Of a stretch of 64,000 nucleotides of DNA, positions 2,845 to 12,673 are shown piece by piece; positions within the stretch are counted from its first letter, which is position 1, and every line of letters starts with the position of its first letter. Both the position numbers and the translations under genes were made by a program. The DNA lies in the NCBI RefSeq assembly GCF_054482595.1, contig NZ_CM137008.1. One strand, written 5' to 3'. The notes beneath the pieces were generated by a model. It was not told where the DNA came from, searched no databases, and worked only from the letters and a program-made list of their open reading frames with translations.

Positions 2845-4263
2845 TTATTTCCCCTTCCGCGCCGCCTCATACGCTGCCAACGTTTGTACTCTCGCCTCTT
2901 TGTGCTCGACTATCGGTTGCGGATAATCCAGCTTCACACCTGCTTTCTCAGCCCACTTCCACGGCTCATGCACCGATTTCCCCGGTACATTGCGCAGTTC
3001 CGGTAGCCACTGGCGGATAAACTCGCCTTCGCGGTCAAATTTCTCGCCCTGGGTTGTCGGGTTGAAAATACGAAAATACGGCGCTGCATCAGTACCCGTA
3101 GAAGCCGCCCACTGCCAGCCACCGTTATTGGCTGCCGAATCACCATCAATCAGCTGCGACATGAAATATCGCTCGCCTTCGCGCCAGTTGATCAACAAAT
3201 CTTTCACCAGAAAACTGGCTGTAATCATCCGTAGCCTGTTATGCATCCAGCCAGTGCTGTTAAGCTGACGCATGGCAGCATCGACAATCGGGTATCCCGT
3301 TTTGCCTTCCTGCCAGGCCTGTAAATGTGCGGGATTGCTCTGCCACTGCACACGATCCGTCCAGGCAATAAATGGACGATGTTTACACAACGAGGGGTGA
3401 TACGTTATCAGGTGACGGTAAAACTCGCGCCAGATCAGCTCATTAAGCCAGACACTACCGGCCCCACCGTCCAGCGCCTGCGGCTGTTCCGCCAACAGGC
3501 GATGCAAACACTGGCGAGGTGATAACCCGCCCGTTGCCAGGCTGGCGGACAAACGGCTGGTGCCTTCCACTGCCGGAAAATCTCGTTGTTGCTCATACTC
3601 TCCGGCACCGTTCTGGCAAAACTGGCGTAATTGCGCAATCGCCGCTTTTTCTTCCACCGGGAAATGCGCAGTATCGAAAGACTGACGAGGATAATTTAGC
3701 GTAATGGATGGCGCGGGCTTTATCGATCCGCTACTACGAACTTTTGGTGCAGCGACGCACTCCGGCATCCCTTCCCGCAGCCGTTTCAGCCAGGCATTCT
3801 TAAAAGGCGTAAAGACTTTGTACATCTCGTGATTGCCAGTCATCACCGCCCCCGGCGGCAGGATCACGCTGTCATCAAATCCTTCACACACCACGTTACG
3901 CAGCGCTCTTTCAACGTCCACATCCCGCGCCCGCTCATTCACCTCATACTGATAGTTATAAAAAAGATGAGTAACGCTGTTTTCCGCGCACACCTGTTTA
4001 ACTAATTCGACGCTGGCGACAAAGTCATCCACTTCACGGAACAATAAAGGAATACCTTTTTCCGCCAGCGCGATTTGTAGCCCGTTCAGTTGAGCATTGA
4101 TAAGTTCAGCCTGACGCGGCGACATATTATGCGCCGCCCACTGGCGTGGTGTAGCGATATACAACGCCAGCACGCGTGCAGACGAATTGCGGCAGGCGGC
4201 AGCCAGCGCGAGATTATCGTGCAGACGTAAATCCTGGCGAAACCAGACCAGATGGGTAGTCAT
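2845..4263 (-). CDS. phr: Deoxyribodipyrimidine photolyase
   Basis: 472-aa ORF recognised as E. coli photolyase (phrB); start overlaps the ybgA stop by 4 nt. Confidence 0.93.
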   Translation of the reverse strand: MTTHLVWFRQDLRLHDNLALAAACRNSSARVLALYIATPRQWAAHNMSPRQAELINAQLNGLQIALAEKGIPLLFREVDDFVASVELVKQVCAENSVTHLFYNYQYEVNERARDVDVERALRNVVCEGFDDSVILPPGAVMTGNHEMYKVFTPFKNAWLKRLREGMPECVAAPKVRSSGSIKPAPSITLNYPRQSFDTAHFPVEEKAAIAQLRQFCQNGAGEYEQQRDFPAVEGTSRLSASLATGGLSPRQCLHRLLAEQPQALDGGAGSVWLNELIWREFYRHLITYHPSLCKHRPFIAWTDRVQWQSNPAHLQAWQEGKTGYPIVDAAMRQLNSTGWMHNRLRMITASFLVKDLLINWREGERYFMSQLIDGDSAANNGGWQWAASTGTDAAPYFRIFNPTTQGEKFDREGEFIRQWLPELRNVPGKSVHEPWKWAEKAGVKLDYPQPIVEHKEARVQTLAAYEAARKGK

Positions 4264-4769
4264 AAAACTCCTGAATGGCGCAAGTTAATCACACGCGGCC
4301 AAAGTTCGAAATAACGCTGCCCTGAAAGCCAGGCGTCAGGATAAAGCGCCATATAGTGTTTGATACGCATCAGCGGCGCAAGAAGCGGTTGCTCGCCACG
4401 GCGATAACTGTCGATAAGCGCTGCCAGCTGCTGGCGTTCTGTGGAATCAATATGCGGGCGAAAATAACCCTGAACGTGCATCAAAACGTTGGTGTGATCT
4501 CGCGGGTTGGCAGGATGAGAAAGCAAAACAATTACGCGTTGGTAGTACTGGTTGTAATAGTCATCCAGATTTTGCCACCGATGAATATCAGCCACAAACG
4601 GGCCAAGTTTGCGGTATTCCGGCTGGGAATGCGCCAGAAAGACGAGTTTATAGCGGCTGTGATAATCGAGAAGCGCCCCGCGCGTTAAGCCTCGCTCTTT
4701 AAGACGGTGTAACTCCTGCAAAGCAAAAATGCGGATAAGGGTGCTGTCATCAAATCGTTGTAGATTCAT
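4260..4769 (-). CDS. ybgA: DUF1722 protein YbgA, co-transcribed with phr
   Basis: 169-aa ORF recognised as YbgA; 4-nt overlap with the phr start. Confidence 0.9.
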   Translation of the reverse strand: MNLQRFDDSTLIRIFALQELHRLKERGLTRGALLDYHSRYKLVFLAHSQPEYRKLGPFVADIHRWQNLDDYYNQYYQRVIVLLSHPANPRDHTNVLMHVQGYFRPHIDSTERQQLAALIDSYRRGEQPLLAPLMRIKHYMALYPDAWLSGQRYFELWPRVINLRHSGVL

Positions 4770-4942
4770 TACTGCTCCTGAACGGTTTACAGGAGTAAGT
4801 GTAGACGATGGTAAATGAATTTTGTGGGGTTATGCTTTCTTCCCTACCAAGCTGTTATATCCAGTTCAAAAACAATCATTTTACATCATCATCAAAGCAG
4901 CGAATACTTGACCGATTGGTAGTACCGCTGCATATTTCACCA

Positions 4943-5200
4943 TCAATTATATTTTATAATTTGTTGTATTGCTGACTTTATATTGCCAATGACATCCTCA
5001 TCATTAAATTCATTTAATATATTTTTTAGAATAGGATGTAGTTTAATATCACCTAAAATACCTGCCAAAATAATAACTTCATCAAAAATTATGTTTTTTT
5101 GCAGTTCATAAATTATAGCAGTTATAACACGATTATCTTTTCTTTCTGCCAGTCCGCTTATAGCTTCAATTCTGGCACAATCATTCTTATCTGTCAGCAT
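4943..5200 (-). pseudogene. HEAT/ARM-like repeat ORF fragment abutting the ISAs1 element, possible remnant of an Rhs immunity gene
   Basis: 85-aa AT-rich ORF with HEAT-like periodicity (ARIEAISGLAERKDNRVITAIIYELQ...); starts 12 nt below the transposase stop in the same frame; too short to be a complete HEAT-repeat protein. Confidence 0.3.
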
Positions 5201-6490
5201 TCCAGGGCAAGATTACGAAAGCCCGCTCCCCGCAAGGACTGACGCCAGATAGTTTCTGTCCATGGCTGCTTTTCGCATCTTACGTCTTAACCCTGCCTTG
5301 AATACCTTATCATTCGTCAAAATATTAATAGCAATGTGCCGTATCCCTGAAAATAATTCTGCTGCATTTCCTCTTCTTATTTTGCAGTCGTCTTCATTCA
5401 TTACCACGTCCAGACGCCAGTGCAGCTTATTCTCCACGTGCCAGTGGTTTCGGATTGCTGTGGCGAACTTCTCTGCGGTTAAATCAGCAGAACTGATATA
5501 ATATCTGACCGTCATTTCTGGCTCTTTCTTTTGTTCTGCTATTATGGACCGAAAGGAGACTGCCACGCATAATTTCTTCAGCCCTTTCCATTCAAACGTG
5601 AAATCAATAAGTTCATCAGGGACATCGCAAACATTATGAAGACGGATCTCTTCTCTGCCGTGACTCTTTTCACTCATTGCGTAACTGTCATGCTCTGGAT
5701 TATTTAATTCTTTCAGTGGAAATTTTTCCTCAAAGGCTTTATTAAGCCGCCCCTGATTTCCTTTTACAGCGAATAAATAATCACCGCCCTGTTTTTGTAT
5801 CTTCTCTGCGATATCTTTCTGGCAACCCATCGCATCAGTTGTGATAATTTTTCCTTTAATATCCAGCATGTTAAGAAGTTCAGGGATAGCTGTAATCTCA
5901 TTAGATTTCTCATCCGTCTTGATCTGTCCGATGACCAGACTGTGCATTGTTGAGAACGCACTAATGACATGAATCGCTCCCCTGCGGCGACTCTTGTCAT
6001 AAGAGTGCCGGAGCGTTTTTCCATCAATTGCAATGACGTCTTTATCATCTGAAGAATGGCAGTCACGCATCCAGTTAATAAAGCACTCGTGAAATTTTGC
6101 AGGACTGATACAGGATACAACTCTGGCAATGGTATCGTGAACAGGAATACCATTTTCAAAATCACCATATTGCTTCAAAAAATCGAGATGTGTTTCCCCA
6201 AAATCCTCTATATCTTCCCAGCCTTCTGCACCAGAAATAACGGCACAAATAGTCAACAGTAGAATATCCGATAATTTATGCTCCACTTTCCAGGCTTGTC
6301 TGTAATCAGGGATAATAGAAATATGTTCCATCAATTTTTTAAGTTCCATTTTGTTCTCCTTAATTATGTAAGGAGTATTTGATCATGTATAAGCAATAAA
6401 AAACAGCTTCAGGTAATGAGGAATATCTCAATTTTTAAACATAAAATGCGAATTATTTAGTACAAAAAGTGAACTTCTGATGATCTTTCC
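5201..6490 (-). mobile_element. ISAs1-family insertion sequence (E. coli H-repeat/ISEc1-like); boundaries approximate
   Basis: Contains an intact 378-aa ISAs1 transposase ORF; the size expected for an H-repeat is about 1.3 kb. Terminal inverted repeats could not be fixed by eye; only a short shared gcggggag core was seen near both ends. Confidence 0.5.
5213..6349 (-). CDS. ISAs1-family transposase (H repeat-associated protein), full length
   Basis: 378-aa ORF recognised as the H-repeat-associated (YhhI/YdcC-type) transposase family; no frameshift or internal stop. Confidence 0.9.
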
Positions 6491-6987
6491 CTGTGATTGC
6501 TTCCCGTTTCCCGATACGGCGGCGCGGGGAGTCATAAAGGTAAGAAATTTCCAGCAGTACAGCGTCCTATTGTTCACGGCGGTAATGCACCAACCAGTAT
6601 TGGCTATCGTAGTGATAACCGTGTAACCTGCCGCCGCATCGCGTATCTAATGTTCATTCTTTTCCATAAACCGTCCGTACACATTGTGATAGTAAAAATA
6701 CAATACATCTTCGCTGATGCGGTTATTCTGCTGCATGTGGGGAGCGCCGAATACTGCTCCCGGTATGGCCAGTAATTACTATTTAGTACGACGTTAGGGG
6801 GAGTCACTTAATCTCACAGATACTTCAAGTAACAGATGAAAATCGCTCCTGAAATGAAAAAAGAAATTTTTTTGAATGTGTTCCTGTCAAATCAAGTGGT
6901 TTTTTCGTCGATATGTAGAGTCATATTGTACACAAAATTGTTACGAAACACACCTTGGTAAAATATTTGAATCGACTGTACAGTGGA

Positions 6988-7290
6988 TTATTTTGTGTGT
7001 ATTACATTCAACACTTGCCCATCTTTTTTCGCTATTAGTATTGTAAAATTTCCTCCTAAAGTCTTCGGTTGTTTTCCCTCGATTTTCCAACAATTATTGT
7101 CATCTGTAATACTATATGGTTTCTGAAATTCTGCTTTTTCTTTCCCGTATACATATTTAATGTAAACATATGATAATTCCAAAGCCATTTCACGACTATT
7201 TACTAAAATTTCCACTGGATTTTCTTTTCCAAATACTTGTTATGATATTGTAAACAATATCATAATAAGTAATATTAGTGAGTTTCTCAT
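6988..7290 (-). pseudogene. Small secreted-protein gene interrupted by an in-frame TAA at codon 17 (orphan immunity-like remnant?)
   Basis: ATG at 7290-7288 opens MRNSLILLIMILFTIS, then TAA at 7242-7240, then the same frame continues QVFGKENPVEILVNSREMALEL... to the stop at 6988. The ORF-track 75-aa ORF (6988..7215) is the in-frame downstream part, starting at a GTG. Confidence 0.4.
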
Positions 7291-7458
7291 GTTCTACACC
7301 TATCGAATCTCAAAAGCTGTGGGTAAAACATTACATTCAGAATATATGATATTCTTACCATCGGAATCCATTTTTCCAAATCGACCTTCTGGTGTACCTG
7401 GATATCCATTAAGAACATGTTTTTCCGAATGGTTAATTTATTCTCTCAGGAAGATGTT

Positions 7459-8028
7459 TTATTTTTCTTCACTACGAAGCAGTTCATGCTGTATTTTTGT
7501 TAAACATTCGTAAGACTCATCTTTGTTCGGGAGATGTGCTGTCATTCGAGCATAAGTTGGCTTCTCATCTTTAAAATATTTAACCATGATTGAATTATCA
7601 AGGACTGCCAACAACTGAGCTGGATCACTGCTCTTTTTTTGATAGATACCCGCTCTTATATAACTTCTAAACCGATCGCCGAGAAACGCCGTTTTTTCTG
7701 CTGTATTTATCAACTCCTGCAACGTTCCTTTGATGGCATGATTTTCATTAAGGCGTAGTGACCCGACACGAATTAAGAGTCTCGCCCCGCTTGATGTGAA
7801 TTTATTATTTTTACATGTACCCAGTTCTGTTTGCCAATAATACTCACCGATGTCCTCATTCTGATACCATCTCCACATGGCTTTATTATTTAAGACAGGA
7901 AACGCGGAAAAAATAGTACCCTTAGCGAAAATAGTAAAACAATCATGATCTTTAGCTTGTATTTCGCAATCAGCTATAACACCAAAATTAACAAATATCA
8001 TCAGCAAAAAGAACAAAACTCTTTTCAT
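7459..8028 (-). CDS. Putative Rhs immunity protein with N-terminal signal peptide (YbfC-like by length and position)
   Basis: 189-aa ORF whose start overlaps the rhs stop by 4 nt; N-terminus [19 protein letters not shown] resembles a Sec signal peptide; low GC like the rhs 3' end. Confidence 0.6.
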
Positions 8029-8549
8029 TTTCTTATTCCTCTCGATGTTCTCTGTTTCATTTTAGCTAAAATTTCACCCAAATCATCTATCCCTGCTGTT
8101 GCTGGCCCATCGGGTTTATTAATGTCTGGGAATAAATAGGGTTCTGCACAAGTATATCCTGGTGGTAATTGAGTTGTTGGCCAATTTGTCTGTGGCAGGT
8201 AATCACTTGCTGTCTTTGTATCCATCCCTGGATACTGGGGATCATCCTGTGGCGTACAAGTCAGATTTGGTTTTACCCACTTCCTGCAATACAGTGTGTA
8301 GTCGTAAGGGCTTAATGCTCTGAAGAATGTTTTGAAAACATTAGGCGCACTACTGGCCTGGTCAATAGGATATGGCAGTCTTAATTGTTTCGCTATGTCT
8401 GGCAATTTACTTGGATCGGGCGTAGGCGGTTTGTTGGGTCTCGCTCCATATCCGCCATTATTTAAGTGTCCATATTTTGATGCCAGTCCCATTGAATCTA
8501 TATACTGAACCGGATTCAACGGATACTGATAAAAATTCCATCCCCCCTT
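8025..8549 (-). other. Rhs C-terminal toxin domain (174 aa after DPIGL), family not recognised
   Basis: Sharp drop in GC below 8550; residues [43 protein letters not shown]...[17 protein letters not shown]...[11 protein letters not shown]...; three Cys and Pro-rich stretches. Confidence 0.6.
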
Positions 8550-11500
8550 CAGTCCAATCGGATCCTGAGTGATATACCTCCCCTGCAGCGGGTCATAATA
8601 GCGGTGGCGGTTGTAATACAGGCCGGACTCCTCATCATACTGCTGACCCGGCAGGCGGATGAGCTGCTGCAGCTGGTGCGGGTTCTCTTCATTCAGCTGG
8701 TTACCCCATTCATCGTATTCTGCGTACCACGCTGTTGTCCCTTCCGTGCTGATAAGCGCCAGCGGCAGGCCGCGATGGTCGCAGTGGTACAGGTGGATTT
8801 TTCGCGCCGGCGTGTACACCGGGTCCATCTGGTTTTGCATCTGCTTCACCGTCAGGCCGCACGATGCCAGCCAGCGGCGGCTTTCCTCACTCACCCGGTC
8901 AGCCAGGATTTCACTTTCCAGCCGGTCGAGCATCTGCACCAGCACCGGCGGGAACACCACACTGCCACCGTCTTCACCGCCGGACTGCTGAAGGGCATCC
9001 GCCAGGCTGCGGCGCTGCGTTCTGGCCAGTTCACCGGTGGCAGTTTCAACTCTGATGAGTGGTGTGAAGCTCCCCGGCTGATAAATCGTCTGGATGCGGG
9101 TTCTGTCGTTCTGTATCGTGGTCAGGCGGTCGCCATCCCAGCCGTACCAGGTCACTTGCGGTTTCCGTGACAGCGACATCCAGCCCGTCAGGTCCCGTTC
9201 ACGTCGCCATACCCGTTTTGCCACCCTGCGGCCCAGCGGGTCGTAAAGATAGCGGCTTTCGACCAGCGGCTCTGCATATTGTGTCCGCGTGTAGTGCACC
9301 AGCCGGTGCTGACTGTCGTAATGGTACCGGTGGGTGCGCTCATCATCCGTGCGGATAACCCCTTCCGGGATGAGGTCGGTTTTCTCTGTCAGTCTGCCGT
9401 GACGGTCATACCGGTAAAGATAGTGCGCGTCACGGGCGATACGGTTATCCGGCCACATGCTGAGGGTGCTGTCCGGGTGCAGCTCCGGGTCGGGCAGGCG
9501 GTTACCTGCCGGGTCCGTGGCATACGGGATGCGGATATCAAGGTTCGCTGCCGTGGTGTGAACGCCGGTCAGCCTGCCGGAGTCGCTGTAGCTGTAACTC
9601 CGGGTATGGCGCGGGCTGCTGATGCGGATGAGTTCGCCGTTGTCGTTCCAGGTGTAATCGCGGTCAGACTGCAGGCTGTTCAGGTGCTGGCTCTGTAACT
9701 GCCCGGCAGGGGTATAAGCGGTGGTGAGTTCATAATGGCCGAAGCTGCGCAGCGTTTCCCGGTGCAGGCGGTCGCGGGTGAAATCCACCAGCGGTGTGTC
9801 GCCGAGCTTCATGCCTGACAGCCAGCCGCTGCCGTAGGTCAGCCATTCCACGGCGGGCAGGCTGTCCGGTATACAGCGGTTCGCCAGCCCCTGCGCGTTG
9901 TAAGCGTGTCTGGTCTCATGCTGCCAGAGCAGTGCTTCCGTCTGCGGGTGATGCACCGTCTGACGCTCACCGGTCAGGCGGCCTTTCTCATCATACCTGT
10001 AATGCACCGCTACCCGGTGCCCTTCGCTGATATGGCTGATGTCTGTCAGCCAGCCACGTTCGTCATACCGCCACCGCTCTGCGGTTTCACCCTTCACGGT
10101 GCGGTGCGTGAGGCGGTCTGCTTCGTCATAGTGCCAGTGGGTGACCAGACCCTCATCCTCGCTGCGGATAAGTTTGCCGGTCAGGTCGTGGTGATAATGC
10201 TGTGTGCGGCCGTCAAAGCCGGTTTCCTGTATCAGCCGGTCGAGTACATCGTAACGGAAGGTGGTGTGGCTGCCGTTTTCACTGGTCAGGCGGATGACCC
10301 GTCCGGCAGCATCGTATTCCATACTGCGCGTCAGACCGCCCTGCGTGGTACGGATGGCCTTTCCCCACGCATCGTACTGTGTCCCGTTTCTGCTGCCGTC
10401 CGGAGCAATGACGGCGGTCAGGTCACCGGCGGCGTTGTATTCATACCGCATTTCATGGCCCTGCATGTCTTTCACGGCAATTAACCGTCCACGGCTGTCG
10501 TATGCGCGGTACTGACTCAGCCCTTCCTCGCGGTGCACCGCCGTCATCTGCCCGAAACGGTCATGGTCATAACGGGTTACATAACCGGAACAGTCGGTGA
10601 AGCTCAGCAACTGGCCGTAACGGCTCCACGTCATGGTTTTCCGGCTGCCGGTGGCATCGTCCGTTGCGCAGGGTAAGTCACTGTGTGGATTATCATAACG
10701 GTAGCGGGTGATATCGCCGTCAGGGGCGGTTTCCTGAATCAGACGGCCGGATTCATCATATTCCCGGCGCATTTCCAGCCCGTCAGGCCCGGTGGCTGAC
10801 GTTAACTGGCTGTGGTGGTTATAGTAAAATGCCGATGCCCTGCCATCCGGTGTGGTGATGCGCGTGATGAGTCCCGTCACCACATCCGGGCTGTATTCTG
10901 TTGTCCGGCCTGCGGCATCCGTCTGTGCCTTAAGCCTGCCCACCGCATCAAACTGACTCTGCGTGACGCTGCCGTCCGCGTGTTCCTTTTTCACCACCCG
11001 CTTCAGCCCGCCTTCGCCCTGCGTGTGCAGCACTTCACGGCGGTCCAGGCTGTCGGTGATGGTGATGCGGTTTTGCTCATAACAGTAGGTGTAGCTTAAG
11101 CCCGCCGGGTTAAGCTGCTCTGTCACCCGCCCGTCGCTGTCGTAACGGTAACGGATTTCCGGTCGGCCCGTGTGACGGTGCGCCACCATCCGGCCCCGGT
11201 ATTTATCATCGTAAGTAAAGCTGCGCACCTGTGTATTGCTGCGGTCATACACCGCCGCCAGTTCGCCGCGTGGCGTCCAGCCATAGCGCACCAGCGGCGC
11301 GGCTGGCAGGTTGTCCGGGTATTCCGGGTCGTGCGTCAGCCACACGGCAGACAGACGGATGCCGTTGTCCCGGCCATATTCGGTGTAACCCGGCAGGGTA
11401 TCAGGAAAAGCGGACGGTTCCGTCCCGCCGGAAGAGGCCTGCTGCCGGGCTTCTTCTGCCCGCTGCGCCTGCGTGGTCAGTACCAGCCGGAAGTGACGCC

Positions 11501-12224
11501 CGGCACCATCCGTCACGCCGGTGATTTCGCCGCTGAATTCACCGGCGGCTTCGCGGTGGAACGTCTGTGTGCGCCCGAAGCGGTCCACCAGCCCGGTCAG
11601 TACCCGGTACGGCGGCAGCGGCGCAGGCAGCACCTCATCCGCTTCCGGCACCCGCTCACACCAGCCGAGCAGCCACCACGGCCCCTGCGGACTGTTTGTC
11701 GCCAGATAACGATGCGGACTTAAGCGGAGTTCTTCCGGCAGCGCCTGCCAGAGTGCGGCCAGCCGGTGACCTTCATCCAGTTTCGCCACGCCGCCGCGCA
11801 CCAGCCACAGTGACTCGCTGCGGCTGTAACCGTCCTCACCGGGAAACAGGTGCTCAAAATACAGGCTTCTGCCGCCGTTATCACTGAGTATCAGTGTGTT
11901 ATCGCGCAGCTGTAAGCGGATATCCGCAGGCATTTTCCAGCCGGGGCCGAGGCTCCCCACCGGCGCGGGCGTTTTTGTCCGGTAACTGCTGTAGGTGCGG
12001 GAGAGAATGAACGGCAGCGGGGCGGGCAGGGCGATGTCGGTTTCACCGGGAAGGACCTTTGCACCGAGCAGCGGATTGACCGGATGGCCGGACGTCACCC
12101 CGCCGGGGCACACCGAACAGGCCACGCCGGTGGGGGCACCAATACGTACCCCGGCTGAACCCTGGACAATGCTACCGCCATACTGCGTCATGTCGCCCTG
12201 ACGCGCCGCCGGTTTTCCGCTCAT
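8025..12224 (-). CDS. rhsC: Rhs family protein (RhsC by position next to ybfA-kdp) with variable C-terminal toxin domain
   Basis: 1399-aa ORF; N-terminal region with CSVCPGG motif, long YD-repeat core, and DPIGL core-end motif encoded at 8550-8564, followed by a 174-aa C-terminal domain. Confidence 0.9.
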
Positions 12225-12417
12225 CTGCTCATCCTTGTATTATCGGGTTATTTGTCCGCTGACAGGCAAAACCCTACAGATTTATAAGAAAGCCTTAAGT
12301 GAGATATCCGTCAGATAGAAACAATTAGGAAAATATTTATATATATTTCATGAATATATGTTTCGATTGGTATAACGGTGTCTAAATATTCCTCTGAACA
12401 TCTTCCTGATACAAAAA

Positions 12418-12447
12418 ACCGCCAGCGTTTCCGCTGGCGGTTTTCAA
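12418..12447 (-). terminator. Rho-independent terminator downstream of ybfA
   Basis: Minus strand reads ccgccagcg gaaa cgctggcgg followed by a T6 run. Confidence 0.7.
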
Positions 12448-12466
12448 TGTATTCAGAACTCAGCAA

Positions 12467-12673
12467 TCAATAAAAATCACCGGTTGCCTTTTCGGCCTGA
12501 TCCATCCACACCGGTTTATCGCTGGTTTTCGACCAGACGCGATGCAGGTAGCTGTAAAAGCGGGCGCGGTCTTTCCAGAAAAGCATGAAAGGCAGCGCCA
12601 GAACGCCCGCTGCAACCGCATAAGTACGGCGTAAAAAGATAAGCCATGCTGGATATTCTCTGTAGAGTTCCAT
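12467..12673 (-). CDS. ybfA: Small membrane protein YbfA (DUF2517)
   Basis: 68-aa ORF recognised as YbfA; divergent from the kdp operon. Confidence 0.85.

Follow-up and report, generated by a model that had tools for sequence, protein, structure and literature searches.

A complete ISEc1 (H-repeat) copy at the distal edge of an RhsC element: intact structure and mixed evidence on mobility

Results and Discussion

The stretch of DNA analysed here (64,000 nucleotides; hereafter the window) contains a single copy of ISEc1, the "H-repeat" of the ISAs1 family, which is complete, spans 1,291 bp at positions 5203-6493 and lies on the minus strand. We consider it highly probable (roughly 0.85) that this complete copy arrived by Tn5-type DDE cut-and-paste transposition, that DNA on its left side was removed later, and that the element is structurally competent while its present rate of transposition is very low or nil. 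The evidence on mobility is mixed, in that past activity is supported and recent transposition is opposed. ISEc1 is an already known element and an intact copy of it is ordinary; the discovery value is accordingly small, since the H-repeat has been described for decades, the exact protein is in RefSeq and intact copies are near-universal in E. coli. What the analysis adds to the annotation is the exact limits of ISEc1 and its inverted repeats, together with the recognition of an adjoining 85-aa "hypothetical protein" as what is left of a yibA-like HEAT gene that the IS has cut. It also provides a modest lead, as breakpoints at the IS termini in several strains, one clean end-anchored deletion and purifying selection make the activity of the H-repeat a testable question.

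Limits, identity and locus of the element

The edges at 5203 and 6493 were defined as the exact positions at which homology stops in comparisons with copies in five different flank contexts. The copies compared were those at RhsB/yhhI, RhsE/ydcC and RhsC/ybfL of K-12, those of BL21, O157 Sakai and strain F9792, and several others. Between these edges, the window element is 98.0% identical to a repeat_region of O157 Sakai that is annotated as "ISEc1 Family: ISAs1" and is likewise 1,291 bp long. The first-pass annotation had assigned the element to 5201-6490; an element is indeed located there, but the assigned limits differ by 2-3 bp from those given by the homology stops. The 1,290 bp marked in that annotation are 100% identical in nine complete E. 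coli genomes (one of them strain XH990), and the RefSeq name of the product in these identical genomes is "ISAs1-like element ISEc1 family transposase" (WP_040234609.1).

Members of the ISAs1 family carry a single ORF in an element of about 1.2-1.5 kb, with terminal inverted repeats beginning with CAGGG. The window element, with one ORF in 1,291 bp, belongs to this family and to ISEc1, as judged from the full-length match to the family model, the DDE triad, the CAGGG ends, the size and the near-identity to annotated copies. Its transposase matches the equivalog of the family, which includes ISAs1 of Aeromonas salmonicida, IS1358 of Vibrio cholerae and IS1548 of Streptococcus agalactiae, from end to end. 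The closest known counterparts, H-rptB (yhhI) and H-rptE (ydcC) of K-12 and ISEc1 of O157:H7 Sakai, have the same length of 1,291 bp, the same termini and the same 378-aa ORF starting at element position 145. Nucleotide identity to these counterparts is 97.8-98.1%, with 4-7 amino-acid differences, so that the distinctions are only at the level of alleles. Like the window copy, each of them lies distally in an Rhs element and lacks a target duplication.

At this locus, ISEc1 forms the distal edge of the RhsC element, beyond the core, the tip and the orphan modules. The gene order is rhsC, ybfC, an orphan NTF2 immunity gene, a core fragment, the IS, a HEAT remnant and ybgA. On the minus strand, rhsC (8025-12224) and its immunity gene ybfC (7459-8028) occupy 7459-12224, and the orphan NTF2-fold immunity gene, which was recognised by Pfam Imm-NTF2-2 (E 9e-21) and by the RefSeq annotation in an identical genome, is found at 6988-7215, between ybfC and the IS. 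The neighbouring genes are ybgI, dtpD, phrB and ybgA on one side, and ybfC, rhsC, ybfA and kdp on the other.

Terminal inverted repeats

Alignment of ISEc1 copies identified terminal inverted repeats at both ends. The left one (IRL) is found at 6474-6493 on the minus strand, upstream of the transposase gene, and has the sequence CAGGGAAAGATCATCAGAAG. The right one (IRR), at 5203-5221 on the plus strand, has the inward-facing sequence CAGGGCAAGATTACGAAAG and overlaps the stop codon of the transposase gene (5213-5215). Both ends begin with CAGGG. IRL and IRR are identical at 11 of 13 positions without gaps and at about 15 of 20 when one gap is allowed; as the ends had been defined independently, the 11/13 match has a chance probability of about 1e-5. 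Clean terminal repeats had not been recognised by eye in the first-pass annotation, yet they are present, albeit short and imperfect. That annotation had also named missing or mutated terminal repeats as an argument against an intact element. Here, both repeats are present and of the consensus type rather than mutated, because the first 13 nucleotides of IRL are invariant in 10 of 10 aligned copies and the last 13 of IRR are nearly so.

The transposase gene and protein

The transposase gene is located at 5213-6349 on the minus strand and, according to the ORF listing, comprises 378 codons from an ATG start with no internal stop. The earlier description of a full-length ORF without a frameshift is thus borne out, the uninterrupted frame also matching the ISAs1-family profile over its entire length. 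Residues 8-94 correspond to Pfam DDE_Tnp_1_assoc (E 7e-34) and residues 102-343 to Pfam DDE_Tnp_1 (E 5e-31), and the NCBIfam equivalog NF033564, "ISAs1 family transposase", is matched at profile positions 1-314 of 314 with a score of 417 bits (cut-off 70). When 1.84 billion representative proteins were searched, 30,620 relatives were obtained at E <= 1e-3.

Conservation was assessed in an alignment of 55 sequences, consisting of the window protein and 54 full-length relatives with 35-54% identity. Eighteen columns of this alignment are invariant, including those of D109 (AIDGK), D172 (TTDAMGCQ) and E306, which constitute the DDE triad. Substitution of catalytic residues, which the first-pass annotation had listed as a second argument against a functional element, is therefore not seen, all three residues being intact. 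The window protein carries the consensus residue at 48 of the 49 columns conserved at >=90%, the sole departure being L332, where Asn is found in 50 of the 55 sequences (91%). We considered L332 as an inactivating change and rejected it, since four other family members also lack this Asn. To judge from these comparisons, nothing in the sequence speaks against catalytic competence, and the protein is a putatively active transposase.

A search of the PDB by sequence with the transposase returned nothing significant. The AlphaFold2 model (pLDDT 93.7, pTM 0.91) has Tn5 transposase as its best PDB fold match (1MUH, E 1.2e-9, TM 0.52), and the top matches are Tn5 structures. In the model, D109 is placed on a beta strand, D172 just past a strand and E306 on a long helix, with a beta-rich insertion between D172 and E306 as in Tn5. 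The fold is thus predicted to be Tn5-like, with an RNase-H-like DDE core. The Tn5/IS50 transposase (IS4 superfamily, 1MUH) has this core in common with the window transposase, as well as the insertion rich in beta structure that separates the second Asp from the Glu and typifies the superfamily; in contrast, sequence identity between the two is only 9%, and the DDE_Tnp_1_assoc domain at the N-terminus of the window protein is unlike the domain with which Tn5 binds DNA. By analogy with Tn5, we infer that ISEc1 would transpose through a hairpin mechanism.

It could be supposed that no real element is present and that the feature is a chance ORF or a mis-assembled repeat. This supposition has practically no chance of being correct, as it is contradicted by the full-length family HMM matches, by the 100% identity in nine independent complete genomes and by the confident Tn5-like model, and it was ruled out on these grounds.

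The right end marks an insertion in a HEAT-repeat gene

The right end of ISEc1 adjoins the C-terminal remnant of a yibA-like HEAT-repeat gene, which is cut by the IS. The remnant lies at 4908-5202 on the minus strand, matches NCBIfam PRK09687 at profile positions 202-283 of 285, and is annotated by RefSeq as a hypothetical protein of 85 aa (ORF 4943-5200). In four metagenome or read-archive (Logan) contigs (L019, L020, L022 and L024), an uninterrupted HEAT gene of 143-145 aa is located directly upstream of ybgA-phr, with no IS. These contigs align to the window up to exactly position 5202 and then continue into the rest of the HEAT gene (...CATTTATCA|GAATGCTGACAG), and the K-12-type yibA gene, which is about 70% identical, likewise runs contiguously across the breakpoint. 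Because the HEAT gene is uninterrupted in contigs whose match stops at 5202, and because yibA spans the same point, the right junction is a real insertion breakpoint. A breakpoint of such precision, in a gene that is intact elsewhere, implies that ISEc1 did transpose at some time. The original event would have been an insertion into the yibA-like HEAT gene by Tn5-type DDE cut-and-paste transposition.

The joined flanks (300 + 300 bp) were compared with 5,426 complete E. coli genomes, in which no site covered both halves and no empty site was found. The only half-site recovered was the uninterrupted right flank in the Logan contigs. At high identity, none of the complete E. coli genomes contains the remaining part of the interrupted HEAT gene, and the original target duplication is consequently unrecoverable.

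The left end and strain differences at the IS termini

Instead of the other half of the HEAT gene, the left end of ISEc1 abuts a degenerate Rhs core fragment (...HGYHYDSQYWLVHY..YLYDSPRRRIGKREAI) that occupies 6494-6652 on the minus strand and ends with ...YLYDSPRRRIGKREAI| at the IS terminus; it was identified by translation and by comparison with the RhsC core motif. About 40 of the 5,426 complete genomes have this combination of Rhs core fragment, IS and HEAT remnant, in which the flank on one side bears no sequence relationship to that on the other. Complete E. coli genomes contain neither the joined flanks nor the missing half of the HEAT gene, and the window copy lacks a target duplication; the insertion must therefore have been followed by one or more events of deletion or recombination. 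The DNA on the left side would have been lost either by an adjacent deletion, mediated by the transposase and anchored at the IS end, or by homologous recombination involving two copies of the H-repeat at the locus. Tn5 is known to produce adjacent deletions.

Comparison of the RhsC locus in Sakai, BL21 and K-12 with the window revealed strain differences that break exactly at the IS termini. The left terminus is followed by 6494 in the window, by a DUF6258 module in Sakai and by an Rhs core fragment ending AEYDEWGN in BL21. The right terminus adjoins 5202 in the window; the adjoining position corresponds to 4907 in Sakai and, for a partial copy in K-12 and BL21, to approximately 4832. In addition, four genomes, JX21CE8 among them, have the architecture of the window on either side but lack 219 bp of it (6494-6712). 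This deletion begins exactly at the left terminal base of the IS, with no microhomology and no sign of a second copy, and is the footprint expected of a transposase-mediated adjacent deletion.

For older events, recombination between two H-repeat copies explains the absent duplications equally well. Two or three tandem H-repeat copies are found at the RhsC locus in K-12 and BL21, and the left junction of the window coincides with a BL21 junction at which the same core fragment meets another module. Two-copy recombination is favoured here because the left junction of the window already exists in BL21. For the same reason, a simple series of nested deletions leading from BL21 through Sakai to the window, which we had considered, is not secure. 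The suggestion in the first-pass annotation that the element could drive rearrangement of the adjacent modules holds in part: the strain breaks at the IS termini and the 219-bp end-anchored deletion agree with it, but where the main toxin tip is swapped in comparison with K-12, the explanation lies in homology between Rhs cores and not in the IS.

Copies in other genomes

ISEc1 is carried by 5,342 of the 5,426 complete E. coli genomes (98%), at a median of five places per genome (range 1 to 17), and a near-full-length copy is present in 4,936. The K-12 RhsC locus contains ybfQ (an "inactive transposase"), ybfL (a pseudogene) and ybfD (a 253-aa partial ORF), and comparison of the annotation confirmed the earlier statement that the H-repeat is degraded at this position in K-12. 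An intact copy is nothing unusual, in view of the number of genomes with a near-full-length copy and of the two intact copies, yhhI and ydcC, elsewhere in K-12. The RhsC locus itself differs among strains: there are three degraded copies in K-12, one copy with a disrupted frame (annotated "internal stop") and one deleted copy in BL21, and a copy with a premature stop in Sakai, compared with the single intact copy of the window.

Nucleotide identity among the K-12 copies, and between these and the window copy, is 95-98%, that is, the copies differ by 2-5%, in which respect they do not resemble IS that were active recently. Comparison of the window copy with nine others for mosaic structure showed patchy differences, from which parental copies were not identified. 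In the identical genome XH990, ISEc1 occupies two further places, neither of which corresponds to the RhsB or RhsE site of K-12. ISEc1 is situated beside Rhs tips in most of the contexts examined and also occurs away from Rhs loci, the O169 O-antigen cluster being one instance.

Only 25 of 72,556 plasmid records match ISEc1. Three of these were inspected and were discarded as evidence of mobility, as they proved to be chromosomal segments (ansP-nhoA; nrfB/nfrA) or to contain Rhs fragments; several of the other matches are Mb-sized "plasmids".

Past and present mobility

Other ISAs1-family members are reported to transpose and to generate target duplications of 8-10 bp. In contrast to these relatives, no target-site duplication was found in any of about 13 ISEc1 copies examined, among them those of the window, of RhsB, RhsE and RhsC in K-12, of BL21, Sakai and strain 144, of the three "plasmid" records and of the O169 O-antigen cluster. 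In the window, where the flanks are unrelated, any duplication would have been lost through later rearrangement. An IS census of another E. coli genome likewise listed non-matching flanks at all its ISEc1 copies (PMC6963479), and transposition of the H-rpt was described as unobserved in the E. coli W genome paper (PMC3032704).

The marks of a currently active IS are therefore absent in our comparisons: there are no identical copies at multiple sites, no full empty site and no target duplications, and the plasmid occurrences are rare and chromosomal in appearance. The statement in the first-pass annotation that the copy could still be mobile is accordingly supported with respect to structure, the ends, the ORF and the catalytic residues being intact, but not with respect to signs of recent movement, considering the missing duplications and empty site, the divergence of 2-5% between copies and the nature of the plasmid matches.

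These observations raise the possibility that ISEc1 is an inert relic that no longer transposes, and that the missing duplications and variable junctions reflect host recombination between H-repeats together with ordinary deletions, in which the transposase is uninvolved. Such a relic would account for the lack of a target duplication in every copy examined, for the 2-5% divergence of paralogous copies and for a literature without observed transposition (PMC3032704); the tandem H-repeats at the RhsC locus in K-12 (and BL21) are ready substrates for recombination, and the left junction shared with BL21 fits a two-copy ancestor resolved in this way. L332, in place of an Asn conserved in 50 of 55 family members, points in the same direction, although four other members lacking the Asn weaken this point. 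The precise insertion breakpoint at the right end, however, requires transposition at some time, and the 219-bp deletion ends at the terminal base of the IS with neither microhomology nor sign of a second copy. A strong synonymous bias (described below) and invariant termini are, moreover, not expected of dead DNA. Taking both sides into account, we regard an inert relic as somewhat unlikely, and prefer the reading of a structurally competent element that transposes at a very low rate or not at all at present.

Selection and decay of the transposase gene

Compared with intact paralogues, the window copy gives dN/dS ratios of 0.06-0.19. Eight same-locus copies with the same right junction differ at 31 synonymous, 12 non-synonymous, 5 non-coding and 2 indel sites, and the ratio of 31 to 12 departs from a neutral 1:3 ratio with a binomial P of about 1e-10. 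In two strains, differences at 9-10 nucleotides leave the encoded protein (WP_040234609.1) unchanged. The synonymous differences among the same-locus copies are partly clustered at element positions 612-777, a pattern that resembles a conversion tract and may have been imported from paralogues by gene conversion; this possible import weakens the argument for selection in place. Broken copies also exist, as the copy of JX21CE8 is frameshifted and those of Sakai, BL21 and the K-12 RhsC locus are disrupted. Overall, the substitution pattern points to purifying selection on the transposase, part of whose signal may have been acquired through gene conversion.

Selection on copies fixed at one locus could alternatively indicate a domesticated transposase, which the host would keep for a role linked to Rhs, for example the trimming or reshuffling of orphan toxin/immunity modules, rather than for its spread. 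The presence of ISEc1 in 98% of complete E. coli genomes, its position adjoining Rhs tips in most contexts examined and the deletions anchored at its termini are compatible with domestication. Nevertheless, degraded copies occur at many loci (K-12 RhsC, BL21, Sakai and JX21CE8), between 1 and 17 places are occupied in a genome, some copies reside outside Rhs loci as in the O169 O-antigen cluster, the ordinary ends of an IS are retained, and gene conversion between paralogues can mimic selection in place. Domestication is therefore very unlikely in our judgement, and an IS that retains its structural competence remains the preferred reading.

A further proposal combines selection with the breaks at the termini: the ISEc1 transposase would be kept functional by selection, and the termini would anchor one-sided deletions that progressively trim the orphan toxin/immunity modules at the distal end of Rhs. 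We consider this proposal quite doubtful at present; if it were true, the H-repeat would be an active shaper of Rhs loci even though its ordinary transposition has never been seen.

Expression signals in the leader

A promoter scan yielded no promoter above background, with 13 promoter-like sites against 8.7 +/- 2.8 expected. One candidate with its -10 element in a hairpin loop was dropped, because its transcription start would fall inside the Shine-Dalgarno sequence. No Rfam model matched the window between 4500 and 8100. Folding and shuffling identified a stem-loop with a 7-bp stem (CUCCUUA/UAAGGAG) in the leader at 6356-6375 on the minus strand, in which the Shine-Dalgarno sequence AAGGAG is paired (-8 kcal/mol, z -2.8; equally good folds in 2 of 200 shuffles). 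Two substitutions within the stem in other ISEc1 copies keep the pairing via wobble. By analogy with IS10 and IS50, this stem could sequester the Shine-Dalgarno sequence and thereby keep read-through transcripts untranslated.

Sequence variation within ISEc1

Comparison of the ISEc1 copies revealed two sequence types directly inside the 13-bp core of the left terminal inverted repeat, at element positions 14-25 (window 6469-6480). The TCAGAAGTTCAC type is carried by the window copy, the K-12 RhsB and RhsE copies and the BL21 copy, and the CGTAACGCTACT type by K-12 ybfL, comparison locus L008 and strain 144, with a near variant in locus L009. Outside these positions, the leader is nearly identical between both types. 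A second block of variation lies at element positions 612-777 (window 5717-5882), where eight synonymous differences within approximately 170 bp distinguish the window copy from the other copies at the RhsC locus, five of which separate it from all but one of the seven other strains. Such clustering of synonymous changes suggests a gene-conversion tract derived from another H-repeat copy.

In the transposase, codon 332 (window 5354-5356) encodes leucine in ISEc1, while 50 of 55 ISAs1-family members have asparagine at this column, within the motif AAEN. Because asparagine is also absent from this column in four further members of the family, the leucine is probably tolerated.

ISEc1 copies and Rhs sites in other genomes

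The O169 O-antigen cluster of E. coli F9792 (positions 4002-6022 of locus L012) carries an intact ISEc1 between wzx and cpsG, sharing 98.8% identity with the window copy. This copy is inserted at position 758 of an older, approximately 88% identical ISAs1-family element, and a truncated helix-turn-helix gene lies on its other flank. As at the other copies examined, there is no target duplication.

The Rhs sites of E. coli XH990, which is identical to the window over 4200-8100, were read at loci L025 and L027. The site corresponding to K-12 RhsB (yhhJ to nikR) is occupied by hicAB and a PTS island in place of an Rhs element, and the RhsE site carries a complete vgrG-rhs-immunity set without an H-repeat; examination of these two sites did not place the two remaining ISEc1 matches of XH990.

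Modular composition of the RhsC region

Base composition is strongly mosaic over window positions 4908-8024, with GC contents of 29% in the HEAT remnant, 40% in the IS and 37% in the orphan and immunity region, compared with 60% in rhsC and 53% in ybgA-phr. This pattern is consistent with modules of differing origin. At the left end of the IS, a degenerate Rhs core fragment (6494-6652, minus strand), in which an in-frame stop separates HGYHYDSQYWLVHYRREQ from DAVLLEISYLYDSPRRRIGKREAI, terminates at the element. This core fragment also stops at the identical base in BL21, Sakai and strain 144, where it is joined to a DUF6258 module rather than to the IS, so that two different partners share one breakpoint.

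Comparison of window positions 7420-12600 with the K-12 locus (L002) showed that the main toxin tip of the window rhsC corresponds to a module found only as an orphan in K-12 (the ybfO fragment and ybfC), and that the window lacks approximately 830 bp which in K-12 comprise the primary tip of RhsC together with ybfB, the immunity gene of that tip. A difference of this type is expected from recombination between a core and an orphan core fragment, without involvement of the IS.

The orphan NTF2-fold immunity gene (6988-7215, minus strand; Pfam Imm-NTF2-2) is related to the K-12 yhhH family. Since its annotated length ranges from 59 to 100 aa across orthologous loci, the 75-aa window version may be truncated at its start. 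Between this gene and ybfC lies an imperfect, AT-rich palindrome of 38 bp (7234-7271, containing TTGTTATGATATTGTAAACAATATCATAATAAG), which came to light because BLAST aligned the segment with itself in inverted orientation in several strains.
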